DNA from: [Candidatus Thermochlorobacteriaceae] bacterium GBChlB
GTDB lineage: Bacteria; Bacteroidota; Chlorobiia; Chlorobiales; Thermochlorobacteraceae
Direction: 5' to 3'
DNA length: 64,000 nucleotides
Assembly: GCA_000724175.1 (NCBI GenBank)
Contig: JPGV01000018.1
Span: forward strand, 15,647 to 79,646
Part shown: one piece after another, positions 5,943 through 64,000 of the stretch
Layout: each line of letters starts with the position of its first letter
How positions within the stretch are numbered: the stretch's first letter is position 1
Made by a program: the position numbers and the translations under genes
The notes under the pieces: generated by a model
What the model saw: only the letters and a program-made list of their open reading frames with translations
Databases searched by the model: none
Told to the model about the DNA's origin: nothing

Positions 5943-8900
5943 ATGCGTAACTTGTGCCTGACCATCTTGTTGTGCTTACATTACCTAATCCTTGCCACTG
6001 TCGCTTTTGCGCAAGACCCGAAAGATTTAAAATTCGATAAATATTCAACCGACCAAGGGCTGTCGCAAAGCAACATCACAGCCATCGTTCAAGACAAGAT
6101 GGGCTTTGTTTGGCTTGGCACAACAGACGGGCTGAACCGCTTCGACGGCTACAACTTCACCGTGTTCGTCAACGACCCGCAAGTGCCGACCTCAATTTCA
6201 AGCAACGCCATTCAAGCCTTGTGTATTGACCGAAGCGGTGTATTGTGGGTTGGCACGCAGTCTGGGCTTTGTCGCACGACCGATGGCGGACTTAGCTTCG
6301 AGCGCTTGAAAGGCGAGCAAAATGCCACACTGCACAACGACAACATCACGGCAATTTTCGAGGAGAAGTCTGGCAACATACTCATTGGCACACAAGGCGG
6401 GCTTTACAAAACAAGCGACGGCGGCAAGAGCTTCAAGCAAATCGGCAATGATGCCCGCAAAGGCGCCAGCCTCGTTAGCGACGTCATTACAGCGATTACG
6501 GCGGATAACAACGGCGTTCTTTGGGTCGGCACCTTCGGCGGCGGCGTGGCAAAATCAACCGATGGCGGACAAACTTTCACATCGTTTCAACACAATCCCG
6601 ACAACGCCAAAACCATCAGCAGCGATACGATTACGGGCATTGCTATTGACAAAAAAAACCGCGTTTGGATTACCACCTTCGGCGGCGGCTTGAACGGACT
6701 TTACCCGAACCGAAAGGACTTCGACCGGCTGCGACACAGCCTCAATCGCTCCGACGACGATATGATGACCTCGATATGCCTTGCCAACGACGAGAACCTG
6801 TGGATAGGCTCGGTCGGTCGGCTCTGGCGGTATAATCCAAACTCTAAAAAAGAGCCTTGGCGAAACTATACCGTTGCACGTGGTTTGAGCGACAATCACA
6901 TCACGGTGGTCTATCAAGACAAAGCCGGGCTTATTTGGGCAGGAACATTCGGCGGCGGCGTCAATATCACTGACCCGTATGGCTCGGCAAAATTTGACTA
7001 TGTGATTGTCAAGCGGCGCAACCCGCGCGACGACCGATTCTACAACGAAGACGTCTCTGCTGTTTGGGAAGAAGGCACAGACAAGGACGGCTATCCGATA
7101 TTGCTTGTCGGCACAACGAGCAACGGGCTGTTTCGCGTCTATAAAAATATCTTGAGCCGTCTGCCGATTGAAGAGGCAAAAGCGGCTGCGCCCGCTGCTG
7201 GCAAAGGCAAAAAATCAAAACCCGTCAAGCGCAAAGCCAAACCCGCCAAGCAAGGCAAAAAAGTTGAGGCCAAAAAAAGTGAACGCACGCTCAGCAGTAA
7301 CTCTGTATCGGTGCTCCTGCGCGATAAGTCGGGCGTGCTGTGGGTCGGCACGGATAACGGACTCAACTACTACGACACGACCGATGGCAGAGGCTTTGCC
7401 GTCTTCAAATCGACGTCGGACAATCCGAAAAGTTTGAACGACAATTTCATCACGGCGCTGTGCGAAGACAAGTCGGGCAACCTGTGGGTTGGCACGAAAA
7501 ACGGATTGCATAAGCTCGCCAAGGCGAACCGCTACGATACCACAAAGGGTGGGCAGTTTGCGCTGTTCAAGACGGCGAGCGGGCTGTCGAGCAACGACAT
7601 CACGGTGCTGTTCGAAGACAAATCGGGCGCGCTCTGGATTGGCACGCGCGACGCAGGACTTTGCCGCACCACCGACGGCGGCGCGACCTTCACCAAATTC
7701 ACTGCCAGCCCACAAGGGTTGACGAACAACACCATCACGTCGATTTGTCAGGATAAAAAAGGCGCGATTTGGGTGAGCATCTTAGGCGGCGGACTCTGTC
7801 GCACGGTCGATAACGGCGCGACCTTCACGCCGTTCCGCGAGCGCGACGGGCTTGCCAGCGATGTAGTCTTTGGCGCCGTTGCCGATGAAGACGGAAATCT
7901 CTGGCTCAAAACGCGCAAAGGCATCACGAAATTCTCGCCGCCTAACGACGTAGCTGCCAAAGACCGCAAAGGCGGCTTGTTCCGCAACTATGATAAACGC
8001 GACGGGCTTTTGGTCAGGCAGTTCGACGCCGGCGGCTACCATATTGGCGCATCAGGGGCAATTTATTTCGGCGGCTTGGGCGTTGTGCATACGTTTTACC
8101 CTGAAGATTTGAAGGACAACGATGATGCGTTTGTGCCCCCCGTTGTTATCACTGGGCTGACGAAGTTCGACGGCACACAATTTACGCGCGACAGCAGCAT
8201 TATCATCAAAAAAGACATTGAACTGGCGCCAAAAGATTATCTATTCACAGTCGAGTTCTCCGCGCTCTCGTATTACTTGCAGGAAAAAAATCAGTATCAA
8301 TACAAGCTCGAGGGCTTCGATAAAATTTGGGTCGACGCACGGAAAGGTCAGCACGAAGCCACCTATACCAATATCGAGCCCGGAAAATATGTCTTTCGCG
8401 TGAAAGCCGCTGGACCAGACGGCATTTGGAACGAAGAAGGCGCATCGCTGACGGTCGATATCGTGCCGCCATTGTGGAAACGCTTGTGGTTTCAGGTGTT
8501 GGCGTTTCTCTCTGGCGTTGGCTTGATTGTCGGCCTGACCTCGTTCACGCAGCAACAGCGCATCAAGCGTATTGAGCGTCAAAAGGAAGAACTGGAATTT
8601 CAAGTGCAGGCGCGAACCAAAGACCTCGCCGAAAGCAACCTGAAATTGGAACAAACCAACAAGAGCTTAGCCGAGAGCAAAAAGCAACTCGAGGAAAGTA
8701 ATCAGGAAATTTTGGAGAAAAATAGAGAGATTACGTCGAGCATTGAATACGCCAAAACCATTCAACTTGCGCTCCTCCCGAGCCGCGACCGCCTGAAACG
8801 TGCTTTGCTCGAATACTTTATTTTGTATCGACCAAAGGATATTGTATCGGGCGATTTTTATTGGCTGCATGAGACAACCGACAAAGTGATTTTTGTTGTA

Positions 8901-9503
8901 GCGGATTGCACAGGACACGGTGTGCCGGGCGCCTTCATGTCGATGATTGGTGAATCGCTGTTGGGTCAACTCGTTATTGAGAAGAACATCTCCAACCCTG
9001 CGCATATCCTCAATGAGATGCACAAGAATGTGCGTCAGGCGCTCAACCAAACCGATGAAATTGGAAGCGGACAAGATGGTATGGATATGGGTGTGTGCGT
9101 CATTTACAAAAGCGCAGAACTCGGCGGCACAAAGCGCGTGTGCTACGCGGGCGCGCGCCGGCCGCTCTACTACGTGAATGCGGGGAACGGCGAGTTTCAC
9201 GAAGTCAAAGGCGACAAATTTTCCATTGGCGGCTGGCAACGCGAAAGCGACCGAAAATACACCGCGCACGACCTCAATATCGAAATCGGCTCAATGCTTT
9301 ATATGACAACCGACGGCTACGCCGACCAACCCGACGCACAAATGCGCGTCTTCGCTGCCAAACGCCTGCGCGAATTTTTGAAGAACATCGCACTCGACAA
9401 AACTGAACGCCAGTTCAAACTATTGGAATCGGAACTCGAAAAGCATCAAGGGTCGGAGCCGCAGCGCGACGACATCACCGTAGTAGGAATCCGCGTCATA
9501 TAG
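5943..9503 (+). CDS. Sensor protein phosphatase (SiaA-like role): signal peptide, two beta-propeller repeat blocks, Y_Y_Y-type region, TM helix, coiled coil and SpoIIE/PP2C domain
   Basis: 1186 aa with many regulator-propeller blades (ITAIVQDKMGFVWLGTTDGLNRFDG and similar). One TM helix is present (LWFQVLAFLSGVGLIVGLTSF). The SpoIIE/PP2C motifs are SGDFYWL, VADCTGHGVPGAFMSMIG and TDGYADQ. Confidence 0.85.
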   Translation: MRNLCLTILLCLHYLILATVAFAQDPKDLKFDKYSTDQGLSQSNITAIVQDKMGFVWLGTTDGLNRFDGYNFTVFVNDPQVPTSISSNAIQALCIDRSGVLWVGTQSGLCRTTDGGLSFERLKGEQNATLHNDNITAIFEEKSGNILIGTQGGLYKTSDGGKSFKQIGNDARKGASLVSDVITAITADNNGVLWVGTFGGGVAKSTDGGQTFTSFQHNPDNAKTISSDTITGIAIDKKNRVWITTFGGGLNGLYPNRKDFDRLRHSLNRSDDDMMTSICLANDENLWIGSVGRLWRYNPNSKKEPWRNYTVARGLSDNHITVVYQDKAGLIWAGTFGGGVNITDPYGSAKFDYVIVKRRNPRDDRFYNEDVSAVWEEGTDKDGYPILLVGTTSNGLFRVYKNILSRLPIEEAKAAAPAAGKGKKSKPVKRKAKPAKQGKKVEAKKSERTLSSNSVSVLLRDKSGVLWVGTDNGLNYYDTTDGRGFAVFKSTSDNPKSLNDNFITALCEDKSGNLWVGTKNGLHKLAKANRYDTTKGGQFALFKTASGLSSNDITVLFEDKSGALWIGTRDAGLCRTTDGGATFTKFTASPQGLTNNTITSICQDKKGAIWVSILGGGLCRTVDNGATFTPFRERDGLASDVVFGAVADEDGNLWLKTRKGITKFSPPNDVAAKDRKGGLFRNYDKRDGLLVRQFDAGGYHIGASGAIYFGGLGVVHTFYPEDLKDNDDAFVPPVVITGLTKFDGTQFTRDSSIIIKKDIELAPKDYLFTVEFSALSYYLQEKNQYQYKLEGFDKIWVDARKGQHEATYTNIEPGKYVFRVKAAGPDGIWNEEGASLTVDIVPPLWKRLWFQVLAFLSGVGLIVGLTSFTQQQRIKRIERQKEELEFQVQARTKDLAESNLKLEQTNKSLAESKKQLEESNQEILEKNREITSSIEYAKTIQLALLPSRDRLKRALLEYFILYRPKDIVSGDFYWLHETTDKVIFVVADCTGHGVPGAFMSMIGESLLGQLVIEKNISNPAHILNEMHKNVRQALNQTDEIGSGQDGMDMGVCVIYKSAELGGTKRVCYAGARRPLYYVNAGNGEFHEVKGDKFSIGGWQRESDRKYTAHDLNIEIGSMLYMTTDGYADQPDAQMRVFAAKRLREFLKNIALDKTERQFKLLESELEKHQGSEPQRDDITVVGIRVI

Positions 9504-45353: not shown

Positions 45354-45360
45354 CGGGTTG

Positions 45361-45432
45361 CTCCGCGAGCAGGATTCGAACCTGCGACCCATCGGTTAAC
45401 AGCCGATTGCTCTACCGCTGAGCTATCGCGGA
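45361..45432 (-). tRNA. tRNA-Asn (anticodon GTT)
   Basis: The minus strand reads TCCGCGATAGCTCAGCGGTAGAGCAATCGGCTGTTAACCGATGGGTCGCAGGTTCGAATCCTGCTCGCGGAG. The 7-bp acceptor stem, D arm, anticodon arm (CT-GTT-AA loop) and T arm (GTTCGAATC) all pair. CCA is not encoded. Confidence 0.95.
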
Positions 45433-53327: not shown

Positions 53328-54671
53328 ATGTTGAAAAAATACACTACCCACGTTCTCTCCGTCGCGCTTTTCTCGACAGCCGCTCTTTGCCCGCCGATGC
53401 TTGCATTTACGAGCGACGACGATGCTCGCGCCCTTGAAAAACTTCGTGCCGAAGTGGATAAACGCGCTGCCGCCATTGAAAAAAAAGTAATCGCGTGGCG
53501 ACGCGACTTGCACGCGAACCCCGAACTCGGCAATCGAGAGTTTCGCACGGCGAAACTTGTAGCAGAGCATTTGAAGTCGCTTGGCTTAGAGGTAAGAACG
53601 GGCGTCGCGCATACAGGCGTCGTGGCGATTTTGAAAGGCGGAAAGCCCGGCGCCGTGGTTGCACTTCGCGCCGATATGGACGGCTTGCCTGTAACCGAAG
53701 AAACCGATGTGCCGTTTGCCTCGAAGGTTCGCACCAAATACAACGGGTTCGATGTCGGCACGATGCACGCTTGCGGACATGATTGCCACGTCTCGATTCT
53801 AATGGGCGTCGCGGAAATTTTGGCAGAAATGAAATCGGAACTGAGAGGCACGGTTAAATTCATCTTTCAACCTGCCGAAGAAGGCGCGCCCGAGGGCGAG
53901 GAAGGTGGCGCTGCCTTGATGCTCAAGGAAGGTGCATTTGAAAATCCAAAGCCAGAAGCCGTCTTCGGCTTGCATGTTTTTTCAGGGATTGAAACGGGGA
54001 AAATCTCCTATCGACCGGGCGCGCTGATGGCAAGTAGCGACTTCCTGCGCATTCTCGTGCGCGGGCGACAAACGCACGGCGCGCGTCCGTGGGGCGGCGT
54101 CGACCCGATTGTCCTAAGTTCACAAGTCGTGATGGGATTGCAAACCATTGAAAGCCGACAAGTCGATGTAACCAAAGAGCCGTCGATTGTAACCGTCGCC
54201 ACAATTCACGGCGGCGTGCGGAACAACATCATTCCCGATAGCGTCGAGATGACCGGCACCATTCGGGCGTTTGACGATAACATGCAAAATGACATTCACG
54301 AGCGCATCAAAACAACGGCAGAGAACATCGCCAAGAGCGGCGGTGGCAGCGCAATAGTTCAAATTAAACGCGGCTATCCTGTTACGGTCAATGATGCTGC
54401 ACTCGCTGAAAAAATGTTACCGACCTTGAAACGTGTGGCGGGTGACGCCAACGTGATGTATCCGGGACAAAAGACGACCGGCGCGGAAGATTTCTCGTAT
54501 TTTCAGCGTCAGGTTCCCGGGCTTTTCTTCTTTTTGGGCGTAACGCCGAAAGAAAATTTATCGACCGCCGCATCAAATCACTCGCCGAAATTTTATGTCG
54601 ATGAGTCAGCGCTTATCGTCGGCGTTAAGGCGCTGACAAACCTTGCCATTGATTACTTGGAGAAAAAGTGA
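53328..54671 (+). CDS. M20-family amidohydrolase (aminoacylase/hippurate-hydrolase type), exported
   Basis: Signal peptide, then WRRDLHANPELGNREF, RADMDGLP, MHACGHD and GAEDF. Confidence 0.8.
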   Translation: MLKKYTTHVLSVALFSTAALCPPMLAFTSDDDARALEKLRAEVDKRAAAIEKKVIAWRRDLHANPELGNREFRTAKLVAEHLKSLGLEVRTGVAHTGVVAILKGGKPGAVVALRADMDGLPVTEETDVPFASKVRTKYNGFDVGTMHACGHDCHVSILMGVAEILAEMKSELRGTVKFIFQPAEEGAPEGEEGGAALMLKEGAFENPKPEAVFGLHVFSGIETGKISYRPGALMASSDFLRILVRGRQTHGARPWGGVDPIVLSSQVVMGLQTIESRQVDVTKEPSIVTVATIHGGVRNNIIPDSVEMTGTIRAFDDNMQNDIHERIKTTAENIAKSGGGSAIVQIKRGYPVTVNDAALAEKMLPTLKRVAGDANVMYPGQKTTGAEDFSYFQRQVPGLFFFLGVTPKENLSTAASNHSPKFYVDESALIVGVKALTNLAIDYLEKK

Positions 54672-54682
54672 TGGGCAATGGG

Positions 54683-55534
54683 TCATCGCCGCTGTTTCAA
54701 GACACGCTCTAATTCCGAGTTCAGCCAGCGTGGGTCGTCGTCGAGAAAGTGCGAAGAGCGAAGGCGCGCACGCTTGACGAGATTGAAATCTATGACGGCA
54801 TCGAGCGCGGTTTCTTCAAAGCAAGGCGCTTTGCAAATCACTGCGCCATCGGGTGAGATAAGTTCCGAGCCGCCCCAATACGATAGCCCGTCCTCATTGC
54901 CCGTGCGATTGATAAACGCGACATAGACACTAAGAAGCATAGCGTAAGTGCGCGACATCATCGACCAGCCTTCGGCGATTTTGAGCTCGCCGCTTGTGAA
55001 ATCAATGCGAAGCGGGCTGTTCGACATGGAGAATATCACCTTTGCGCCCTGCGCCGCCAAAAGATACGGCACGCCTAAATGCCAATTGTCCTCGCAAATC
55101 GCGACGCCGACGCTGCCCAACCGTCTCGAGACAAACGGCTTTGCTTCAATGCCAGCGGAAAAATATCTCAGCTCTTCGAACATGCCGTAAGTTGGCAAAT
55201 AGATTTTTCGGTGGACGGACGTGCCGTTGCCGTCCTCGAAAAAAAATGCAGCGTTGTAGACACCGTAATCGTCGGAGAGTTCGACTGCACCGCAGAGAAT
55301 TGAAATATGGTTGCTCAGGTCTCGCAAGGGCTGTAGCGAAGGGTCGTGGATATGGACGGCAATGTCTTGCGCAGCGTCTTGAAGATTATATCCCGCAAGC
55401 GAGAGTTCTGGAAAAGCAATAAACTCAATGCCGTCGCGAATGGCTTGTTCAATGTACGCCACGTGCTTTTGCAGATTTTTGTCAAAATTGGCAAGCGTGC
55501 AATCGTGCTGTGCGAGTCGGAGTGTAACGCTCAT
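54683..55534 (-). CDS. Carbon-nitrogen hydrolase (nitrilase superfamily)
   Basis: Elements of the E-K-C catalytic triad are present: FPELSLAGY and VAICEDNWH. Confidence 0.75.
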   Translation of the reverse strand: MSVTLRLAQHDCTLANFDKNLQKHVAYIEQAIRDGIEFIAFPELSLAGYNLQDAAQDIAVHIHDPSLQPLRDLSNHISILCGAVELSDDYGVYNAAFFFEDGNGTSVHRKIYLPTYGMFEELRYFSAGIEAKPFVSRRLGSVGVAICEDNWHLGVPYLLAAQGAKVIFSMSNSPLRIDFTSGELKIAEGWSMMSRTYAMLLSVYVAFINRTGNEDGLSYWGGSELISPDGAVICKAPCFEETALDAVIDFNLVKRARLRSSHFLDDDPRWLNSELERVLKQRR

Positions 55535-55759
55535 TCAGTTGTTGTTGGCTGTTGAAGATTGGCAGCAAAGATACGAAAGTCCATACTCAATCGCTGCTAA
55601 CCTTGCTCGTCGCCTGTCGATCGTGCCGACTATCGTTGAAATTTTCCAAACAGCGTTTTCTGTTCTCCGCCAATAAGGGTATGTGACGGCATTGCTGGTG
55701 CGATTGTCATGCACTTCACGCAATAGATTGGCGTCCATCTTGGCAACGCAGAAAGCCGA

Positions 55760-57559
55760 TTAGCTCAAATCGAACTGCAACTCGGAGAGATTGCGATAGA
55801 CGCCGTTCTCGAGTTCCATGAGTTCTGAGTGCGTGCCTTGCTCGACGGCTTGACCGTCTTTGACGACGACGATTTTATCTGCCGTGCGCACTGTGGATAA
55901 GCGGTGTGCGATGATAAACGACGTTCGTCCTTCCATCAAGTGGTCGAGCGCGTCCTGCACAAGCTTTTCCGATTCGGAATCGAGCGAGCTTGTGGCTTCG
56001 TCCAAAATCAGAATGGCGGGATTTTTCAGAATGGCTCTGGCGATAGCAACGCGCTGGCGCTGTCCGCCCGAAAGTTTTATGCCGCGCTCGCCGACGACAG
56101 TGTTGTAGCCTTCGGGAAACCCTGAAATAAATTCGTGCGCGTTGGCTTTTTTGGCGGCGTCAATAATTTCCGCTTCGCTTGCAGTTGGTTTGCCATAAGC
56201 GATGTTTTCCAAAATGCTGCCACCGAAGAGCAAGACGTCTTGCGGCACAATCGACATTTGCGCACGCAGTTCCGAGAGCGGGTAGTCGCGCGACTCGCGC
56301 CCGTCAATTAAAATGCGCCCTTTGTCTGGTTCATAGAACCGCAAAATGAGCGAGACAATCGTCGATTTGCCTGCGCCCGACGGACCGACGAAGGCGACGC
56401 GCTCGCCCGACTTTGCCGAGAACGAAATCCCTTTCAAGACTTTCACTTCTTTGCGCGAGGGATAGCTAAACTCTACGTCTTGAAACTCGACGTCGCCGCA
56501 GCAGCGTGGCAGCATAGCTGGCGCACTGTGGATGCCGACGGCTTCGCCTGTCTCGCGCAGAATTTCGCGCACGCGCTCGGTTGCGCCGACCGCCTTTTGA
56601 ATTTGGCTGTAAAGTTCCGCGAAACTGCCCATTGCTGCGCCGACGAAGGTGGTGTAGAGAATAAACGACGTCAGTTCGCCAATCGTCAACTCGCCGCTTC
56701 GAACAAAACGGCTGCCGACCCACAGCACCAAAATAATCGCGCCGAACAGCCCGAAGATGATGAACGAAAAAAACGCGGCACGAAACTGTGCATTCTTCAA
56801 GACGGTGCCAAGGTATGTAGAAATGCTTCTGCCATAGCGCGTAATTTCAAACTGTTCGTTTGAAAAAGCTTTGACGTTCGCAATGCCCTGCAAGGTCTCT
56901 TCAATGACGGTGCTGCTATCGGCGAGCTTGTCTTGTGCTTCGCGCGAGAGTTGTCGAATTTTTCGACCAAAGTAAACGGCAAGTGCAACGAGCAGCGGCA
57001 CGGCGGAGAGCATGACGAGCGTCAGTTGTGGCGATGTGTAAAAAATCAATCCTAAGCCGCCGATAAGTATCATGGTTTGGCGCAAGAGTTGCGCCAGCGT
57101 GAAGGTAAGCGTCTCTTGAATCTGCGAGAGGTCGGCAGAAAGGCGGCTGGTCAATTCGCCGACGCGACGCTGCGCAAAGAACGACATCGGCAGCGTGATA
57201 AGCTTAGCGTAAGACGTTTTGCGAAGGTCGACCAAACTGTTCTCGCCGACTTGCACAAACCAAATCGATTGATAGTATCCGAACACGGATTGCGCTGCCA
57301 ATGCAACGAAAAGCACCAGCGCGATGGCATCAATATCGCCGAGCCAGCCGTCGGATTTTCCCGCGAGCGCGCCGTCAATCAATTTGCCCGTTACAGCTGG
57401 AAAGACAAGTCCCAACAGACTTGATACCGCCAGCGCAACCAGTGCAGCAATAAATTTCCACTTGTAAGGCAGAACATATTTGAAGAGTTCAACCGCCTCT
57501 CTGAGCGATTCCTTAGTAAGTTTTGCCGCTGGAACATCGGGCTTTTGTTCTTTCGCCAT
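55760..57559 (-). CDS. ABC exporter, fused permease/ATPase (MsbA/multidrug type)
   Basis: 599 aa with six N-terminal TM helices, Walker A GPSGAGKST, signature LSGGQRQR and Walker B LILDEATS. Confidence 0.85.
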   Translation of the reverse strand: MAKEQKPDVPAAKLTKESLREAVELFKYVLPYKWKFIAALVALAVSSLLGLVFPAVTGKLIDGALAGKSDGWLGDIDAIALVLFVALAAQSVFGYYQSIWFVQVGENSLVDLRKTSYAKLITLPMSFFAQRRVGELTSRLSADLSQIQETLTFTLAQLLRQTMILIGGLGLIFYTSPQLTLVMLSAVPLLVALAVYFGRKIRQLSREAQDKLADSSTVIEETLQGIANVKAFSNEQFEITRYGRSISTYLGTVLKNAQFRAAFFSFIIFGLFGAIILVLWVGSRFVRSGELTIGELTSFILYTTFVGAAMGSFAELYSQIQKAVGATERVREILRETGEAVGIHSAPAMLPRCCGDVEFQDVEFSYPSRKEVKVLKGISFSAKSGERVAFVGPSGAGKSTIVSLILRFYEPDKGRILIDGRESRDYPLSELRAQMSIVPQDVLLFGGSILENIAYGKPTASEAEIIDAAKKANAHEFISGFPEGYNTVVGERGIKLSGGQRQRVAIARAILKNPAILILDEATSSLDSESEKLVQDALDHLMEGRTSFIIAHRLSTVRTADKIVVVKDGQAVEQGTHSELMELENGVYRNLSELQFDLS

Positions 57560-57653
57560 AATTGCAGACGTGTTTGTATCGGTGAAAATCGTTCAGGAAG
57601 GATTGTTCAACACAGCAAACGCGAAGTTACGGAATTTGTTGCTTAAAAGGACG

Positions 57654-57661
57654 TATCTTTA
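57654..57661 (+). promoter_or_regulatory. Candidate -7 box (TATCTTTA) for the GNAT gene
   Basis: The motif acgTATCTTTA ends 26 nt upstream of ATG 57688. Confidence 0.3.
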
Positions 57662-57687
57662 ATACCGAAATTGTATTTGCCACCGCC

Positions 57688-58311
57688 ATGTTCAACCGTA
57701 TCAAGCAACGGCGCTTTCGTTTTCCAGCCATGCCGCGCTCAAGGCGCTTACGCTTTAAGCGTGTCGCGAAAAAAGACGGTGATGCAATTTTCAACGCATT
57801 TTGCCGCGACGACAACCCCTTCGTTTCCATTGAGTTCAAAGACCGCGAGAAAGCCAACGATTGGGCAGACTATTCAGCGACGGGCGCGTTTCGCAGCAAA
57901 CACGCTGGCTGCGACTGGCTGATGTATGACGATAACAACCGCCTCGTCGGACTCTTGCACTACTACGACCTTTCGCGTGAGACGTTCAACAACAATCACA
58001 AGCGCTGTTCCATCGGCATTACAATTGCCGCGCCTTTCCGTCGGCAAGGATACGGCGAAGAAGCAGTTGTTGCGCTGTTGAGATATATTCTCACCAAACA
58101 GCCCAACATTGACCATATCTTAGCATACACCGATAAACGCAATACCGCAAGCGCGTCGCTCTTTCGCAACCTCGGTTTCTCGGAAAACGTAACGGACTAT
58201 CTTCGGCACGACGATTTTTACTACTTCACGCTCACGCGCTTGGAACTCTCTGCTCGATTTAACCAAACTGAACGTTCTGCGCCGCTCGTCTCACGAATTT
58301 TTCAACGCTAA
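57688..58311 (+). CDS. GNAT-family N-acetyltransferase (RimJ/RimL-like)
   Basis: 207 aa with the acetyl-CoA binding region IAAPFRRQGYGEEAVVALLRY. Confidence 0.7.
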   Translation: MFNRIKQRRFRFPAMPRSRRLRFKRVAKKDGDAIFNAFCRDDNPFVSIEFKDREKANDWADYSATGAFRSKHAGCDWLMYDDNNRLVGLLHYYDLSRETFNNNHKRCSIGITIAAPFRRQGYGEEAVVALLRYILTKQPNIDHILAYTDKRNTASASLFRNLGFSENVTDYLRHDDFYYFTLTRLELSARFNQTERSAPLVSRIFQR

Positions 58312-58421
58312 CCCTTAAACGACAGCGACGGAAAAAGATTTTTTCATCAGAAACGTTTTCGAGAAATTTAACTTTTTCTTAAACTGAAAGAATCTTGACA
58401 CATGCTGCTGCACATATCGCT

Positions 58422-59210
58422 ATGACCAAAGAAGATGTTTTACAACGAGTGCCGCCGCTAAGACTGCCGCCTGTGCAAGACCTTGCCGTTGGCAGAACCT
58501 TAGTGGTCATTCCAACATACAACGAAGCCGAAAACATTCCACTCGTCGTTGAAATGCTGACGAGTTTGGAAATTCCCTCGCTCGAGATTCTCATCATTGA
58601 CGACAACTCGCCCGACGGCACGGCGCTCATTGTTGAAGCGTTGATGCAGAAAAATAAACGTCTGCACCTCATCAAGCGCGAAGGCAAGTTAGGACTCGGA
58701 ACGGCTTACGTGCGTGGCTTTAAGTTCGCGTTAGAAAAAAAATTCGACTTTGTGATGGAAATGGACGCCGACCTATCGCACGACCCGCGTATGATTCCAC
58801 ATTTTTTGGTGGCAATCAAAGACGCGGATTTGGTCATTGGCTCGCGCTATATGGGCGAAGTGGCGAATGTCGTCAACTGGCCGCTGTCTCGCTTAATCCT
58901 TTCCAAAGGCGCAAGCATCTATACACGCACAATTACAGGCATGCCGATTCAAGACCCGACGGGCGGATTCAAATGCTTTCGTAAAGAAGTCTTACAATCG
59001 CTCAACCTCGACGAAATTCGCTCTGGCGGATACTCTTTCCAAATTGAGATGAATTTCAAAACGTGGTGCAAGGGTTTCCGCATCAAAGAAATCCCGATTG
59101 TGTTCGTCGATCGCACCGTTGGCAAATCGAAAATGTCGCGCAAAATTGTCTACGAGGCAATTCGCATGGTGTGGGTGTTGAAGTTCAAGCAGCTTTTCGG
59201 GAGGCTGTAA
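58422..59210 (+). CDS. Polyprenol-phosphate mannose synthase-like GT2 glycosyltransferase
   Basis: VVIPTYNEAENI, IIDDNSPDGT and MDADLSHDP. ATG 58422 is preferred over the TTG at 58395. Confidence 0.8.
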   Translation: MTKEDVLQRVPPLRLPPVQDLAVGRTLVVIPTYNEAENIPLVVEMLTSLEIPSLEILIIDDNSPDGTALIVEALMQKNKRLHLIKREGKLGLGTAYVRGFKFALEKKFDFVMEMDADLSHDPRMIPHFLVAIKDADLVIGSRYMGEVANVVNWPLSRLILSKGASIYTRTITGMPIQDPTGGFKCFRKEVLQSLNLDEIRSGGYSFQIEMNFKTWCKGFRIKEIPIVFVDRTVGKSKMSRKIVYEAIRMVWVLKFKQLFGRL

Positions 59211-59291
59211 CTGCGCGCGCTTAACGCCCTCAGCCAATTCTGCCAACGACTCCGTCTGCGACGACGCGACGCAAAAGCGCGGCGAGTTTCG

Positions 59292-59299
59292 TATCTTTG
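59292..59299 (+). promoter_or_regulatory. Candidate -7 box TATCTTTG (exact TAnnTTTG) for the bi-domain oxidoreductase
   Basis: The motif tcgTATCTTTGcgg ends 30 nt upstream of ATG 59330. It overlaps the track ORF start at 59297, which argues for the ATG 59330 start. Confidence 0.4.
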
Positions 59300-59329
59300 C
59301 GGCTCACAAAAATTCAATGTGCAACCGCT

Positions 59330-61486
59330 ATGCAGCAACTTGTTCAAAACTCCCGTTCTGGCGTCATTAAAATCAATACTGTTCCACCGCCCGCCTTGAA
59401 GCGCGGCATGGTCTTGGTTCGAAATCGGTTCAGCCTGATTTCGGCAGGCACGGAACGCTCGAAAGTCGAGATGGGCAAAAAATCGCTTCTGGGCAAAGCG
59501 ATGGCGCGTCCCGATTTAGTCAAACTCGTGTTGAAACAAGTCAAAGAGCAAGGCTTACTCGATACCGCTGCGCGCGTGATGAATAAACTCGGCACTGATT
59601 CGGCGATGGGCTATTCGTCGGCGGGCGTCGTGATGGAAATATCCGACGATGTATCGGAATTCCGCGTCGGCGAGCGGGTCGCGTGCGCAGGCGGCGGCTA
59701 TGCCTCCCATGCCGAGTTTATCGTTGTGCCGAAAAATCTCGTCGCTAAAATTCCCGACAATGTTTCGTTTCAAGACGCTGCTTATACCACGCTTGGCGCG
59801 ATTGCGATGCAAGGCTTACGACAAGCCAATCCGACGCTCGGCGAAACCATCGTCGTCATCGGGCTTGGCTTGCTGGGACAAATTTTAATTCAACTCTTGA
59901 AAGCCAACGGATGCCGCGTCGTCGGCGTCGACATCAATCCCGACGCAATCGCCTTAGCGGCGCAGCACGGCAGCGACCTTGCCATTTCGCGCAACGAAGA
60001 GACGATTAAAGAACAAATTAAAGCCTTCACAAACGGACACGGCGCAGACGCGGTCATCATCACTGCATCGACCTCTGCCAACGACCCAGTTGAATTTGCC
60101 GCCGATGTGATGCGCGATAGAGGCAGAGTGGTGATGGTTGGCGTTACAGGCATGAACTTGCCGCGCACGCCCTACTACATGAAAGAATTAGAATTTAAAC
60201 TCTCACGCTCCTACGGTGCAGGACGCTACGACGCAACCTACGAAGAAAAAGGGATTGATTATCCGATTGGCTACGTGCGTTGGACCGAAAATCGAAATAT
60301 GCAAACCTTCTTGCAACTGCTTGCCGAAAAAAAACTCAACCTCGAAAAACTCACCACGCACGTCTTTCCGATTGCGCAAGGCGAAGAAGCCTACAAACTC
60401 ATTAGCGGCGAGCGTCAAGAACGCTACATCGGCATCTTGCTCGACTACGGCGAGATACGCGATGACGGCCACACAGCGCATAAGCCGACAGCACTAAAAA
60501 CAAACGGAACAATTTCGAGCGGAAAGGCGAATGCGAAAAACATCGCGTTCATTGGCGCTGGCAGTTTTGCCACGGGCTACCTGATTCCAAACTTGAAATC
60601 CATCGACGGCGTCTCGCTCGATATGGTCTGCAATTCAACGGGGATGACAGCAGAAAGCGTGCGGGCACAGTTCGGATTTAAACGCGCCTCGTCCAACATC
60701 GACGATGTGTTCTCGGACGAGAGCATCGGCACGGTGTTCATCGCCACGCGGCACAATTTGCACGCAGAACTGGTCGTTAGGGCGTTGGAGTCAGGAAAGC
60801 ACGTGTTCGTCGAAAAACCGCTCTCGATTGATGAAGACGGCTTGAACAAAATCATCGCTGCGGCGGAGAGGCATCCGCATCTGCAAGTATTGACGGGCTT
60901 TAACAGGCGATTTAGTGAGCCTGTAAAATTGCTTCGTCAGTATTTTATGCGACTGCAAGAGCCGATTTCCGTCAGCTATCGCGTCAATGCCGGCGCGTTG
61001 CCACCCGACCATTGGACGCAAGATTTGAACGAAGGCGGCGGCAGGCTCATCGGCGAAGGCTGCCACTTCATCGACACCATTCAATACCTCGTCGGCTCTG
61101 AACCCGTGCGTGTTTTTGCGGAAATGCTGCCAACAACAGTGCGCGAAAATTTACTCATCACGATTCGCTTTCAGAACGGCAGCGTCGGCACGATTCAGTA
61201 TCTCTGCAACGGCGATAAACTTTATCCAAAAGAGCGCATTGAAATTTTCGGTGGCAATCGAATCGCCGTGATGGAAAATTTCAAAACTGTGATGCTCTCG
61301 GAGCAAGGCGCGCAGCGCGTCCGCGAGTTCGGCGGTGGCAAAGGTCATAAAGAGGAACTTGCTGCGTTCATGGCGTCGGTCGAGAGCGGCGTTCCAGCGA
61401 TTGAGTTTCGAAGCCAAGTCTTGACCACGCTTGCTACGTTCCGCATCAACGACAGTTTAAACACAGGTTTCGCGGAAGAGATGTAA
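59330..61486 (+). CDS. Bi-domain oxidoreductase (zinc-type alcohol dehydrogenase/MDR + Gfo/Idh/MocA)
   Basis: N-terminal half is MDR with the Rossmann motif VIGLGLLGQ. C-terminal half is Gfo/Idh/MocA with IAFIGAGSFA and VFVEKPL. Confidence 0.8.
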   Translation: MQQLVQNSRSGVIKINTVPPPALKRGMVLVRNRFSLISAGTERSKVEMGKKSLLGKAMARPDLVKLVLKQVKEQGLLDTAARVMNKLGTDSAMGYSSAGVVMEISDDVSEFRVGERVACAGGGYASHAEFIVVPKNLVAKIPDNVSFQDAAYTTLGAIAMQGLRQANPTLGETIVVIGLGLLGQILIQLLKANGCRVVGVDINPDAIALAAQHGSDLAISRNEETIKEQIKAFTNGHGADAVIITASTSANDPVEFAADVMRDRGRVVMVGVTGMNLPRTPYYMKELEFKLSRSYGAGRYDATYEEKGIDYPIGYVRWTENRNMQTFLQLLAEKKLNLEKLTTHVFPIAQGEEAYKLISGERQERYIGILLDYGEIRDDGHTAHKPTALKTNGTISSGKANAKNIAFIGAGSFATGYLIPNLKSIDGVSLDMVCNSTGMTAESVRAQFGFKRASSNIDDVFSDESIGTVFIATRHNLHAELVVRALESGKHVFVEKPLSIDEDGLNKIIAAAERHPHLQVLTGFNRRFSEPVKLLRQYFMRLQEPISVSYRVNAGALPPDHWTQDLNEGGGRLIGEGCHFIDTIQYLVGSEPVRVFAEMLPTTVRENLLITIRFQNGSVGTIQYLCNGDKLYPKERIEIFGGNRIAVMENFKTVMLSEQGAQRVREFGGGKGHKEELAAFMASVESGVPAIEFRSQVLTTLATFRINDSLNTGFAEEM

Positions 61487-61497
61487 CCTTCAGTCTT

Positions 61498-62013
61498 TCA
61501 AAATTTTTGACGAGGAAGCGACTCCTGCTTATCAGAAACGCACAAGGCAATGCTGTTCCACCTTTCTTCAAACGCACTTGCCCGATACCTCAATCGTCCA
61601 ACGCTTGGGTCAATCAACAAAACCGATTCGGCTTCAACGGATTCTACAACGACAAAGTGATTGTCGTTGATGTGCGCGATTGCAGGCAATCCGAGTTTCA
61701 TCAGGTCGTTCAGAGTCGTTTTATAGCCTGTGCAATGCAAGCCTTGTTTGCTCAACGCAGCTTTAATATCGAGTAAGGTTACGCCGCTGTCGCTCGGTTT
61801 CAGGAGCGTGTCTATTGCATCAGGATTTTTGTTGAACGCCATCAATACATTTTTCGCCGCCGCAATGCCGCAATCGTTCCTGTTTTTTTGTCTAATCACA
61901 GTTTCCGTATCCAATACTTCGGTTTTGAACGTTTGACTAATCGCATATCCGGATATCGCTCCAAATACGACGACAAGCGATATGACAAGCAACTGACGAA
62001 ACCTGATGTTCAT
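61498..62013 (-). CDS. Stand-alone C39-family cysteine peptidase domain with an N-terminal membrane anchor or signal
   Basis: 171 aa with N-terminus MNIRFRQ + LLVISLVVVFGAISGYAI. The catalytic set is Q42 (QKNRND), C48 (DCGIAA), H119 (NHFVVV) and D135 (LIDP). The Q-to-C spacing is 6 and the H-to-D spacing is 16, as in bacteriocin-processing C39 domains. The start overlaps the TPR gene stop (ATGA). Confidence 0.75.
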   Translation of the reverse strand: MNIRFRQLLVISLVVVFGAISGYAISQTFKTEVLDTETVIRQKNRNDCGIAAAKNVLMAFNKNPDAIDTLLKPSDSGVTLLDIKAALSKQGLHCTGYKTTLNDLMKLGLPAIAHINDNHFVVVESVEAESVLLIDPSVGRLRYRASAFEERWNSIALCVSDKQESLPRQKF

Positions 62014-63236
62014 TTTTTCTCCGTTGATTTAGTGTTCAGCGCAACCAAATACTCTTGTAACTCTTCCATGAACGTTTGAATCTCCATCAATGAAAGGCTC
62101 ATATCTGCAAGAAATCTCTGTTTTTCATTAAACGCTTGTCCAGAATTATTCGTGTCTGCGGCTGTAAAATTGTTGCCTAACTTTACAAGCAAAGATTTAA
62201 AGTCTTGAAGTTTACGAAACAACTTTTCATTGTTGGTTCTCCGTGCAAGTTCTTCTAAACGAGACCCTATCTCGTTGATTGCCTCTGCCGTGCGCCGGAG
62301 AGCACCGTCAGGATTGACATTGATATTTGTTTGAGCGATGTTTAGTGAGAGACGTTGCTGTCTTGTTATTTCAACCATTTTGACGACGGATTTCTCCACA
62401 TCAAGCGGCAAGGCTTCCACCACAATTTCAGGCGTGTTGTAAAAACGCAACGTGTCGCTTCCAGCTTCCTGCTCATATTTCGCCAGAAACTTTTCCGCAG
62501 CATCGCTGCCTAAACTTCGTGCCTTGACCATATCCAGGTATCCTGCAACTCTCTCGCCCGTCGCCATCCTCACGCTGCCGCGCTCAAAGTATGCTTCGGC
62601 GCTTGCTCTTATCTTGATTGATTCAGTTAGCTCCGTTTCGGCGCGCTCGTATTTTTTTTGCTTCTTGTAAATGAGCGCACGGCGAAGATAGGCTTCGGCG
62701 GTTCTCTCAATCTGTAACGCTTTCGTGAAGTCTTCCAATGCCAGTGAGTCCAAATTTTGCTTGTCGTAACAGATGCCGCGATAAAGCAAACAGTTATACT
62801 GACTATACACCGTCGTGTCTTTTTCGAGTGTAACTGTAAAGTCATTCACTGCATCTGGGTATTCAGCAAGTTGAAGCCGGACAACAGCCCGTCCGAAATA
62901 CAAGTCGGCAAGATTGGAATTAAGAAAAATGGCTTTGGTGAAATCGGCATTGGCGCGCGCGTAATCCTTCAATTGCTTGCGTAGCATTGCGCGATGATGG
63001 TAGCCGTCGATGCTGTCGGGTGCTATCGCAATTGCTTTACTGAAATCTTCCAACGCGCCAAGCGTGTCGTGCGTCAGTTGTTTAAGTTGACCGCGTGCGA
63101 TAAACAACTCTAATGTCGGCGATTTGTTAATTTGCTTATCTATTGAATTCATTTGTTCTTTCAAGAACTGCGCCTCAGTAGTCAATGCAAAGCATATGTA
63201 AGAAACGCCTATTGTAACTTTGAGCCATTGTTTCAT
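62010..63236 (-). CDS. Exported TPR-repeat protein with a C-terminal helical module
   Basis: Start at ATG 63236 (signal-like MKQWLKVTIGVSYICFALTTEAQ). It has several TPR-like 34-mers (ALEDFSKAIAIAPDS..., ANADFTKAIFLNSN..., AVNDFTVTLEKD..., ALEDFTKALQIE...). The track TTG start is 63329. Confidence 0.7.
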   Translation of the reverse strand: MKQWLKVTIGVSYICFALTTEAQFLKEQMNSIDKQINKSPTLELFIARGQLKQLTHDTLGALEDFSKAIAIAPDSIDGYHHRAMLRKQLKDYARANADFTKAIFLNSNLADLYFGRAVVRLQLAEYPDAVNDFTVTLEKDTTVYSQYNCLLYRGICYDKQNLDSLALEDFTKALQIERTAEAYLRRALIYKKQKKYERAETELTESIKIRASAEAYFERGSVRMATGERVAGYLDMVKARSLGSDAAEKFLAKYEQEAGSDTLRFYNTPEIVVEALPLDVEKSVVKMVEITRQQRLSLNIAQTNINVNPDGALRRTAEAINEIGSRLEELARRTNNEKLFRKLQDFKSLLVKLGNNFTAADTNNSGQAFNEKQRFLADMSLSLMEIQTFMEELQEYLVALNTKSTEKK

Positions 63237-63267
63237 CTTATTTCTGCTTGACAAGTTGATTACATTT

Positions 63268-63291
63268 AGAGAGGGAGATGACTCCCTCTCT
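63268..63291 (-). promoter_or_regulatory. Perfect 9-bp stem-loop (AGAGAGGGA-gtcatc-TCCCTCTCT) between the short peptide ORF and the TPR gene
   Basis: Read directly. No U-tract follows, so it is not a canonical terminator. It could be a transcript-stabilising or attenuating hairpin. Confidence 0.5.
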
Positions 63292-63303
63292 AAGACGACT
63301 GCT

Positions 63304-63450
63304 TCAAAGAGGTCCGTTCCCCCAAGCAAACCAGCACCATTCGCCCCACGAAGTTAGTTCGCAACACCAATAGACGCCGGTTCGCCCAAATTGAGTACAA
63401 CTTGGTTCTCTCCCACTTACCCCATCGAGTTGTTCATCGCTGAGTTGCAC
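63304..63450 (-). CDS. Candidate double-glycine-type precursor peptide (48 codons, GTG start), Cys/Trp-rich core
   Basis: Own translation: (V/M)QLSDEQLDGVSG-REPSCTQFGRTGVYWCCELTSWGEWCWFAWGNGPL*. It is below the 60-aa track cutoff. The leader resembles LSxEELxxVxGG and it lies 67 nt upstream of the TPR/C39 genes. The frame stays open upstream of the GTG. Confidence 0.4.
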   Translation of the reverse strand: MQLSDEQLDGVSGREPSCTQFGRTGVYWCCELTSWGEWCWFAWGNGPL

Positions 63451-63554
63451 GGTTTGCGCGACGGTTGCGGTTGTGCGGTGCGGTTCGGAATCACGGTTGC
63501 CGCGCTGCCGCCAAGCAACAGCACGAGCATTGCCAAAGACATGAGCTTTTTCAT
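63417..63554 (-). CDS. Short ORF encoding a Sec-type signal peptide (45 codons), overlapping the precursor ORF in another frame
   Basis: Own translation: MKKLMSLAMLVLLLGGSAATVIPNRTAQPQPSRKPCNSAMNNSMG*. The ATG lies 10 nt after the upstream stop. This may be the true 5' end of the precursor gene if there is a 1-nt indel or a -1 frameshift. Confidence 0.3.
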   Translation of the reverse strand: MKKLMSLAMLVLLLGGSAATVIPNRTAQPQPSRKPCNSAMNNSMG

Positions 63555-63566
63555 TTGTTGGAAAGT

Positions 63567-64000
63567 TTATTTTTTGGAAGCTGTTTGTTCCCGTTCCGCC
63601 AAGCGTTCCTGAAATTCGAAAAATAACTGCTCAATTTTCAATTGTAGTTTGGCAAGTTCCTCGTTGTTGGTAGAAGCTCCCGAATTCTTAAGTCCGAGAT
63701 ACAGTTCTGCAAAGTCATCGGCAAGCGGCTCAATTCTGTTCGCAATCTCCAATAACATTCCGTCTTTAATTGTCAGAGCTTGTTGTTTAAGCAACAAGGC
63801 TATGCAACGCATATTCAATGAACTTGTCCGGCGGGTTGATACTTCCGCTTCGCTACAATTCGAAGGTGAGAGTTCCAAGAATGATGCATTGATTTGCATT
63901 TGCGGTTTGACTGCCGCGCCAAATGTTGGCAAAATTGCGACAGCAGGCTTTTGAACTACCATCATATTGAGTTTGGCGCGCTGCATCAGCATTTTCGACG
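63567..64000 (-). CDS. Hypothetical helical protein, probably 5'-truncated by the window edge
   Basis: The track ORF is 63567..63992 and the frame stays open to position 64000. The C-terminal 92 aa resemble the C-terminal module of the TPR protein. Confidence 0.45.
   Translation of the reverse strand, partial: SKMLMQRAKLNMMVVQKPAVAILPTFGAAVKPQMQINASFLELSPSNCSEAEVSTRRTSSLNMRCIALLLKQQALTIKDGMLLEIANRIEPLADDFAELYLGLKNSGASTNNEELAKLQLKIEQLFFEFQERLAEREQTASKK

Follow-up and report, generated by a model that had tools for sequence, protein, structure and literature searches.

How is a double-glycine (GG) leader removed from a peptide when the peptidase encoded beside it is not part of a transporter? 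In the literature examined, it is the ATP-binding cassette (ABC) transporter exporting the peptide that cuts off the GG leader, with its peptidase domain and on the cytoplasmic side of the membrane. The question is raised by one end of a 64,000-nucleotide stretch (hereafter the window) of contig JPGV01000018.1 from [Candidatus Thermochlorobacteriaceae] bacterium GBChlB, in which an earlier note had described a minus-strand operon with a stand-alone C39 cysteine peptidase, a tetratricopeptide repeat (TPR) protein and a short Cys- and Trp-rich peptide. Our analysis suggests that this region is likely to be the downstream end of a multi-cassette bacteriocin-like locus, in which precursors would be exported by Sec and cleaved by the C39 peptidase in the periplasm, and that the copy in the window has likely been inactivated. 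Every element claimed for the operon was found at the position claimed, and the region contains the following features (aa, amino acids):

61498 to 62013, minus strand: stand-alone membrane-anchored C39 cysteine peptidase, 171 aa (Pfam PF03412).
62010 to 63236, minus strand: putative exported TPR protein, 408 aa (Pfam TPR_1 and TPR_2, signal peptide).
63266 to 63293, minus strand: hairpin with a 12-bp perfect stem and a 4-nt UCAU loop, by folding energy.
63304 to 63554, minus strand: precursor peptide gene, apparently broken (signal-peptide half 63417 to 63554, GG-leader and core half 63304 to 63450).
63409 to 63414, minus strand: Gly(-2) Arg(-1), codons GGG AGA, at the double-glycine cleavage-site position (GGG GGA, Gly-Gly, in most relatives).
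63567 to 64000, minus strand: 3' part of a second TPR-family gene, C-terminal helical domain, continuing past the window edge.

The 171-aa protein is a genuine C39 peptidase. Its score with Pfam Peptidase_C39 (PF03412) over residues 38–163 is 98.1 bits (E = 4.6e-28), above the cut-off of 22, and the catalytic set that the note had recognized as canonical (Q42, C48, H119 and D135) is in register with LahT150 and PCAT1 and invariant in alignments with the ten closest relatives and with 31 distant stand-alone C39 relatives. Its sequence matches in the PDB were LahT150 (6mpz), PCAT1 and the ComA peptidase domain. In the AlphaFold2 model (mean predicted local distance difference test, pLDDT, 83.7) an N-terminal helix (residues ~3–28) is followed by the C39 fold; the best Foldseek match in the PDB was 6mpz, LahT150 with a leader peptide (E = 5e-11, root-mean-square deviation 1.8 Å, target TM-score 0.79), and the next were PCAT1 and ComA.

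It is also correct that the enzyme is not fused to an ABC transporter: the open reading frame (ORF) stops at 171 aa, the protein contains no ABC domain, and the NCBIfam models for peptidase-containing ABC transporters (PCATs) align to it over their first ~130 positions only. Members of the close family are 154–182 aa long, save one 120-aa fragment, and source annotations call such anchored peptidases "ABC-type bacteriocin/lantibiotic exporter." The peptidase remained below the cut-offs of the models for the two stand-alone C39 families FapD (NF058616, 44.4 bits against 330) and FilB (NF050078, 44.6 bits against 475). The 31 related stand-alone C39s gave E = 3.6e-17 at best with these two models, far under the cut-offs, and none of them came near the cut-off of any curated NCBIfam family.

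The candidate substrate was reconstructed by comparison with syntenic contigs from metagenomes and metagenome-assembled genomes (L001 to L005 and L102), which were reached via the closest relatives of the peptidase. The two small ORFs, a 45-codon ORF at 63417–63554 that begins MKKLMSLAMLVLLLGGSAA and a 48-codon ORF at 63304–63450 that starts with GTG at 63450 and reads (M)QLSDEQLDGVSGREPSC...WGNGPL, do exist, but they are not the separate genes that the note took them for. At their place L001 and L002 have one 83-aa gene (MKKLVSLAMLVLLLGGSAATVIPNSTAQPATVAQTVQLSDEQLDGVQGG/QPSCTQFGRTGVYWCCEYTGWTEWCWFAWGNGPL; in sequences, a slash marks the predicted cleavage site here and below). In the DNA alignment the window is short of one base between 63469 and 63468, with CAACC-GCAACC vs CAACCGGCAACC in L001 and L002, and L003 has CAACCCGCAACC at this site. 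The two window ORFs are the halves of one gene, split by a 1-nt deletion. Because the intact homologues fuse both ORFs, a precursor with an export signal and a GG propeptide is directly supported. The single-ORF precursor thus bears out one part of the note's proposal, a Sec-exported precursor matured outside the cytoplasm by C39, while export and cleavage are predicted from sequence.

The intact precursor consists of a Sec-type signal peptide (~20 hydrophobic residues), a ~15-aa spacer, a canonical GG leader (LSDEQLDGVxGG) and a ~35-aa core with 4 Cys. By inspection, MKK, LMSLAMLVLLLGG and SAA/T would fit the basic n-region, hydrophobic h-region and small residues at -3 and -1 of a signal peptide, with Kyte-Doolittle values up to 2.2–2.3, and in all intact copies this segment and the spacer precede the leader, which is not at the extreme N-terminus. 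The core of the short ORF in the window does have the 4 Cys and 5 Trp reported for it. Neither small ORF of the window matched a curated precursor family, and a protein search with the precursor minus its signal peptide returned three proteins only.

According to a review of proteases of RiPPs (peptides made by the ribosome and modified after translation), GG-leader peptidases need hydrophobic residues at positions -12, -7 and -4 and Gly at -2 (PMC10885120). In the window leader LSDEQLDGVSGR, that is L(-12)SDEQL(-7)DGV(-4)SG(-2)R(-1), these hydrophobic residues and Gly(-2) are kept, and the homologues (LSDEQLDGVQGG and others) fit the same consensus with Gly followed by Gly, Ala or Ser at -2 and -1. 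The cleavage site is Gly-Gly in five of the six relatives compared (L001, L002, L004, L005 and L102) and Glu-Gly in the decayed L003. The leader motif claimed for the short ORF is therefore present, and the unusual G-R/S-G site is a mutated Gly-Gly of the window copy, in which the Gly, Ala or Ser at P1 has been lost.

The frameshift is probably real rather than an assembly slip, because only 3–4 gap openings are seen in a 9.9-kb alignment of the flank with L001–L003, and none of the flanking ORFs is disrupted. Programmed frameshifting was also considered for this break and rejected by inspection: no slippery heptamer occurs at ACC GCA CAA CCG CAA, and the homologues are in frame. Owing to the 1-nt frameshift and the Arg at P1, the precursor cassette of the window is probably defective, being inactive or not processed. 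The TPR gene and the peptidase gene beside the broken precursor are both intact.

In intact loci the gene order is membrane-anchored thioredoxin, MauE, precursor, exported TPR protein and C39 peptidase. The thioredoxin-like gene (Pfam Thioredoxin_2, E = 1.4e-8) has a CGHC motif and the MauE gene (PF07291, E = 4e-16) a CxC loop; the pair lies directly upstream in L001, L002 and L102 and is also present in the diverged locus L006. The note had named conservation of the short peptide gene next to the TPR and C39 genes in other genomes as a check, and it is conserved in every related locus. Directly upstream of the thioredoxin gene, L001 (6575–7273) and L003 (7537–8196) encode a conserved hypothetical protein of 219–232 aa with no family match, which by eye is in part helix-turn-helix-like and could be a regulator of the locus.

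Several of these loci hold more than one cassette. L002 has two precursor–TPR–C39 units in a tandem duplication (L002:1168–5388) with 100% identical TPR proteins, L102 has two different precursor–TPR units, and L005 has TPR–Yip1–C39 followed by precursor–TPR–C39. The second L002 precursor (MLVLLLGG...) starts directly after the stop codon of the first C39 gene, and the same shortened start is seen in L005. The ORF at the edge of the window (63567 onward), described earlier as a helical protein, is indeed helical, and it can now be identified as the C-terminal domain of a paralogous TPR-family protein: in BLASTP, 143 aa of it align at 92% identity with the C-terminal end of the TPR protein encoded after precursor "K" in L102, and it also matches the 515-aa TPR protein of L005 (E = 1e-11). 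By synteny, this gene is very likely the partner of a further upstream precursor cassette. Its match to the first TPR protein of L102 makes it very likely that the window ends within such an array, with a further precursor, MauE and thioredoxin beyond position 64000.

The observation that no PCAT was in view is extended by these relatives. Within 10 kb in L001 and L003 there is neither a PCAT nor a gene for an HlyD-type adaptor, a lanthionine synthetase or a radical-SAM enzyme. The one ABC gene in the vicinity, an MsbA-like exporter at 55760–57559 without a peptidase domain (631 bits to TIGR02204), is separated from the cassette by 4 kb and three genes in the opposite orientation; it is part of the conserved flank, outside the variable island. 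None of the three outcomes that the note said would refute its reading was observed, and the reading is supported.

Among nine precursor copies in seven loci the signal-peptide and leader region is invariant. The seven distinct precursors share an essentially invariant LLGGSAATVIP...VQLSDEQLxGV and are unalignable after the cleavage site, where at least four unrelated core types follow; the three full-length types have 4 Cys each, and the fourth (L102 "K") is short, with one Cys, and is possibly truncated. At the DNA level the island is a mosaic. From 61878, inside the C39 gene, the flank is 97.2–97.7% identical between the window and L001–L003. The stretch 61878–62425, which covers the C39 N-terminus and the TPR C-terminus, has no nucleotide similarity to L001 and is 88.7% identical to L004, and 62425–63560 is 88.6% identical to the sister genomes. 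The breakpoints of cassette similarity fall inside the C39 gene and in the leader, and the G+C content is 42–48% over the cassette (61500–64000) vs 50–55% in the flanks (54000–61500). In the decayed L003 (8177–8580 and 10001–10549) a deletion joins the thioredoxin anchor out of frame to the precursor signal peptide; thioredoxin, MauE and the precursor signal peptide have been lost, and the C39 C-terminus is frameshifted (182 aa). The cluster of such frameshifted C39s has three members on three NCBI contigs, two of 182 aa and one 126-aa fragment. To judge from these sequences, decay of cassettes does occur in this population.

The hairpin between the precursor and TPR genes is longer than the 9 bp claimed, its perfect stem comprising 12 bp. 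It begins 11 nt past the precursor stop codon, has a folding energy of -21.6 kcal/mol (z = -4.6 vs shuffles) and is not followed by a U-run. Hairpins occur at the same position in L001, L005 and L004; four loci thus have a stable hairpin, and three stem sequences are represented among them. The hairpin probably acts as an attenuator between the cistrons or stabilises the mRNA, and its recurrence suggests a conserved role in setting the level of the precursor transcript relative to the downstream genes. Promoter and terminator scans of the region gave counts not above those of shuffled sequence.

On which side of the membrane would the peptidase meet its substrate? The encoded proteins have a common N-terminal design: MNIRFRQ and a single hydrophobic helix in the peptidase, MKK, a hydrophobic segment and SAA/T in the precursor, MNNFRLQK and a helix in the thioredoxin, and MKQWLK, a hydrophobic segment and TEA/Q in the TPR protein. 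The short N-terminal tail is basic in most of them. Under the positive-inside rule, a basic N-tail followed by a helix puts the following part outside the cytoplasm, and N-terminally anchored thioredoxin-like domains of the TlpA/ResA type are extracytoplasmic. We infer that the C39 domain, precursor, thioredoxin and TPR protein are located outside the cytoplasm. If the rule were wrong here, the shared N-terminal design would still place enzyme and substrate on the same side of the membrane. In addition, at least four independent clusters fuse a thioredoxin-like domain to C39 behind an N-terminal anchor (P0031, P0063, P0075 and P0093; example locus L097:8001–9014). Three of the four score as AhpC-TSA/Redoxin in Pfam, and P0031 was assigned from its CPSC motif and one ResA-type NCBIfam match in its set. 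No description of a thioredoxin–C39 architecture was found in the literature searched.

Combining these features, we propose the following scheme, in which the parts list, conservation and co-variation are established by sequence and every biochemical step is inferred. The precursor would be exported by Sec, with its signal peptide cut after SAA or kept as a temporary anchor. The thioredoxin/MauE pair would then form two disulfides in the periplasm or keep the peptidase thiol reduced. The anchored C39 peptidase, on the outer face of the inner membrane, would cut after Gly-Gly and free the mature peptide, while the TPR protein would bind the core that is cognate to it, to provide immunity or to hold the peptide. 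In this way C39 cleavage would be separated from ABC export and would take place on the other face of the membrane.

The role of the TPR protein in this scheme is suggested by its covariation with the core. The window protein most sensibly starts at ATG 63236 (MKQWLKV...), and the TPR and signal-peptide assignments of the note were confirmed by matches to TPR_1 (E = 4.5e-18) and TPR_2 and by the N-terminal MKQWLKVTIGVSYICFALTTEA/Q; the ATGA stop/start overlap of the TPR and C39 genes is likewise present in the sequence. About 6–7 repeats (residues ~25–255; pLDDT >90 in the AlphaFold2 model) are followed by a variable C-terminal domain of four long helices, modeled with low confidence (~55–60). 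Identity to the L001 TPR protein is 85% over residues 1–291 only, and the C-terminal domain has one true full-length homologue in the protein database. Wherever the sequence downstream of a precursor gene could be read, a TPR gene follows, and the type of TPR protein goes with the type of core: the three F-type cores are accompanied by TPR proteins 76–90% identical to each other, and W-type cores pair with a second TPR type, ~30–35% identical to the first. This covariation hints that the TPR protein may be a core-specific partner in immunity or holding.

The same design was searched for beyond the close family. The latter is rare, with two clusters at E < 1e-30 among 1.84 billion representative proteins and eight loci in the metagenome scan, and it was not found when 185,579 species-representative genomes, a set from which the window's own genome appears to be absent, were scanned with the C39 alignment. 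That scan returned 80 loci with at most 36% identity over the C39 domain, and all 42 of the reading frames checked were ordinary PCATs of 450–1070 aa or PCAT fragments at contig ends. Among the representative proteins, the best 150 matches below the two close clusters were mostly stand-alone C39s, not PCATs. Of the best 160 representatives 119 were no longer than 260 aa, and 89 of these 119 had an N-terminal 17-mer that is strongly hydrophobic; the mean number of Lys/Arg is 3.3 ahead of it and 1.8 behind it.

Five diverged lineages (L006, L090, L097, L100 and L101; at most 47–49% identity) carry one to four precursors with a signal peptide and a GG leader beside the C39 gene, and the cores of all five have at least two Cys. 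The precursors are ...VQMDDIQLQAINGG/WDGWC... and ...MLSDNDLVCVSGG/EMTKEKTC... in L006/L007 (C39 49% identical), ...MEESEMAIWHGG/SLWKC... in L097/L098 (with the thioredoxin–C39 fusion), ...MSQIEGA/WSWKC... in L100 and ...LSDKNSREIVGG/ECSP... in L101; L090/L094 (C39 47% identical) have four, and in the 3.4 kb of context available for L099 no precursor gene was seen. Genes that recur in these contexts encode a membrane protein resembling Yip1, either thioredoxin/MauE or a redoxin similar to TlpA, and an ABC ATPase together with polytopic membrane proteins; L006-type loci begin with a LytTR regulator. In nearly all of the loci inspected, a gene for a polytopic Yip1-domain (PF04893) membrane protein stands near the gene of the anchored C39, mostly adjacent to it (L005:1574–2257, L006:9282–10004, L097:6189–6893, L100:4246–4968 and L101:2535–3188). 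The L006 gene has no Pfam match of its own and was assigned by its position, which matches that of the Yip1 gene of the related L099. One 469-aa protein (P0087) has an N-terminal C39 domain and a C-terminal Tox-REase-7 nuclease toxin domain; here C39 seems to serve in a polymorphic toxin, without relation to the window locus.

We see an even chance that these loci represent a widespread PCAT-free class of at least ~90 clusters at 50% identity, defined by precursors with a Sec signal and a GG leader, thioredoxin/MauE-type oxidative folding and an extracytoplasmic anchored C39 peptidase, and accompanied by Yip1-like and thioredoxin partners or by thioredoxin fusions.

The most serious competitor to the bacteriocin interpretation concerns the product rather than the pathway: the mature Cys-rich peptide may be a quorum or kin signal and the co-varying periplasmic TPR protein its receptor. 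A hypervariable peptide with a co-varying partner gene fits the pherotype pattern known from ComC/ComD and AgrD/AgrC; in RRNPP receptors it is the TPR domain that binds the peptide; and regulators are close at hand, with LytTR at the head of L006-type loci and sigma-54 activators near L001 and directly upstream in L100. However, the TPR protein has no attached sensor kinase or DNA-binding domain, several different cassettes stand in tandem within one genome, as is usual in bacteriocin arsenals, and the distant loci contain both Gly/Ala-rich cores resembling class IIb bacteriocins and the ABC ATPase and polytopic membrane genes typical of bacteriocin self-protection. Given the tandem cassettes, and given that distant loci have ABC genes and cores like those of class IIb, a bacteriocin is favoured as the putative product, and we regard signalling as rather unlikely.

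A second alternative is that the C39 peptidase processes a larger envelope protein, such as the TPR protein coupled to it, and that the small peptides are incidental or are glycine-zipper membrane proteins. The ATGA overlap fits such a role, as do the inheritance of the TPR C-terminal module and the C39 N-terminus as one block and the weak similarity of some distant cores to glycine-zipper lipoproteins; there is also a parallel in FapD, a periplasmic C39 that targets another, still undefined Fap protein (PMC5557850). In contrast, the LSxxELxxVxGG motif with hydrophobic residues at -4, -7 and -12 is found in the small precursors of those examined loci that have a precursor gene, and none was noticed in the TPR protein, distant loci keep precursors without a TPR gene, and the FapD and FilB models score 44 bits vs cut-offs of 330 and 475, all of which makes this role very improbable. 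Least probable of all is conventional cytoplasmic processing, with the 48-codon ORF as the precursor, a C39 domain facing the cytoplasm and an unlinked ABC exporter such as the MsbA-like one: although the window itself shows two separate ORFs and an exporter gene is 4 kb distant, the intact homologues are single ORFs including the signal peptide, the signal-peptide and GG design is found again in five lineages that diverged independently, to judge from their basic N-tails the C39 anchors should leave the domain facing outward, the fusions to TlpA-like thioredoxins indicate an extracytoplasmic site, and the ABC gene is MsbA-related, without a C39 domain and part of the conserved flank.

The proposal of a Sec-exported, periplasmically matured bacteriocin-like peptide has several points against it. 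The topology call rests on hydropathy, charge bias and fusion partners. The thioredoxin and MauE genes lie outside the window, their presence upstream being deduced from L102. The precursor copy of L005 and the second copy of L002 start inside the hydrophobic segment, without the MKK n-region, and the curated precursor models compared, CTB (NF038167), Bacteriocin_IIc (PF10439) and TIGR03949, gave sub-threshold matches only (E = 4.7e-4, 9.5e-4 and, for the third, 6.7e-3). With regard to the TPR protein, the window and L004 share the C-terminal module despite different cores, and TPR genes are specific to the window's family and missing from the distant loci. No route by which the product would cross the outer membrane was found, and the frameshift could be a rare, isolated assembly error.

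Some features elsewhere in the window are worth recording. At 59297–61486 (plus strand), converging on the C39 gene, a 729-aa ORF that is kept in all sister genomes joins a zinc alcohol-dehydrogenase-like domain to a Gfo/Idh/MocA oxidoreductase domain. A 1186-aa protein at 5943–9503 (plus strand) has a beta-propeller/Y_Y_Y-like region that weakly matches PorZ, and its C-terminus is a PP2C phosphatase domain similar to SiaA (E = 2.4e-60, under the cut-off). The SusC/RagA-like and PorZ-like matches among the proteins of the window are of the kind expected from a diderm bacterium of FCB-group type. The tRNA-Asn (GTT) at 45360–45432 (minus strand) is the sole Rfam or ARAGORN match in the 64 kb.

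If the proposed pathway is true, Sec export and extracytoplasmic removal of the leader by C39 are separate steps. Genome mining keyed on PCATs misses such loci, whose anchored peptidases are mislabelled as ABC exporters. The pathway, if true, would also provide candidate substrates with canonical leaders for the poorly understood periplasmic C39s, among which no studied member other than FapD was found, and naturally stand-alone GG-leader peptidases as tools for leader removal; the RiPP protease review points out that enzymes of this kind would expand the catalogue (PMC10885120). In addition, with its cassettes shuffled from strain to strain within ~97.5% identical genomes, this uncultured lineage gives a compact view of bacteriocin-type diversification in nature.

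The note's remark that it knew of no described system of this sort holds for the whole arrangement: no description of signal-peptide and GG precursors with an extracytoplasmic C39 peptidase was found in the open-access literature, which is absence of evidence, and the relatives suggest a sizeable class with no earlier description found. A periplasmic C39 as such is not wholly without precedent. FapD, which belongs to the Fap amyloid system of Pseudomonas, stands alone, has a Sec signal and was shown by experiment to act in the periplasm with a catalytic Cys, which proves that a C39 can work where the window enzyme is predicted to be (PMC5557850). The fap operon context is absent here, and the substrate of FapD is undefined, the Fap proteins being without canonical GG leaders, whereas here candidate substrates with a canonical leader adjoin the peptidase gene.

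With PCATs, also called AMS proteins, ABC transporters that act in maturation and secretion (LahT, ComA, PCAT1 and CvaB), the window enzyme shares the peptidase family, the fold and the catalytic Gln, Cys, His and Asp, and the systems share the substrate motif LSxxELxxVxGG and the logic of a conserved leader and a variable core. In PCATs, however, the C39 domain is fused to an ABC exporter, whereas that of the window has a single N-terminal anchor helix instead and is predicted to be periplasmic, and the substrates here carry an extra Sec-type signal peptide ahead of the GG leader. Sec-dependent class II bacteriocins of the enterocin P type have a Sec signal, are unmodified save for disulfides and need no dedicated ABC transporter. 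The predicted N-terminal Sec signal and the ABC-free export proposed here are alike, but enterocin P-type peptides are mature after signal peptidase, whereas here a GG propeptide remains and a second protease is encoded. The MauD/MauE pair serves the maturation of methylamine dehydrogenase, with a MauE-family protein (Pfam PF07291) and a thioredoxin-like protein; in L001, L002, L102 and L006 a MauE-family and thioredoxin-like pair likewise stands beside a small exported Cys-rich polypeptide, although here there are no mau structural genes and no MauG, and the client would be a 34-aa peptide. Overall, the predicted system resembles PCAT-dependent GG systems in its chemistry and Sec-dependent bacteriocins in its export, and it appears to be a member of neither group, because its peptidase has no PCAT fusion, its GG leader is not N-terminal and a second protease would be needed after Sec.

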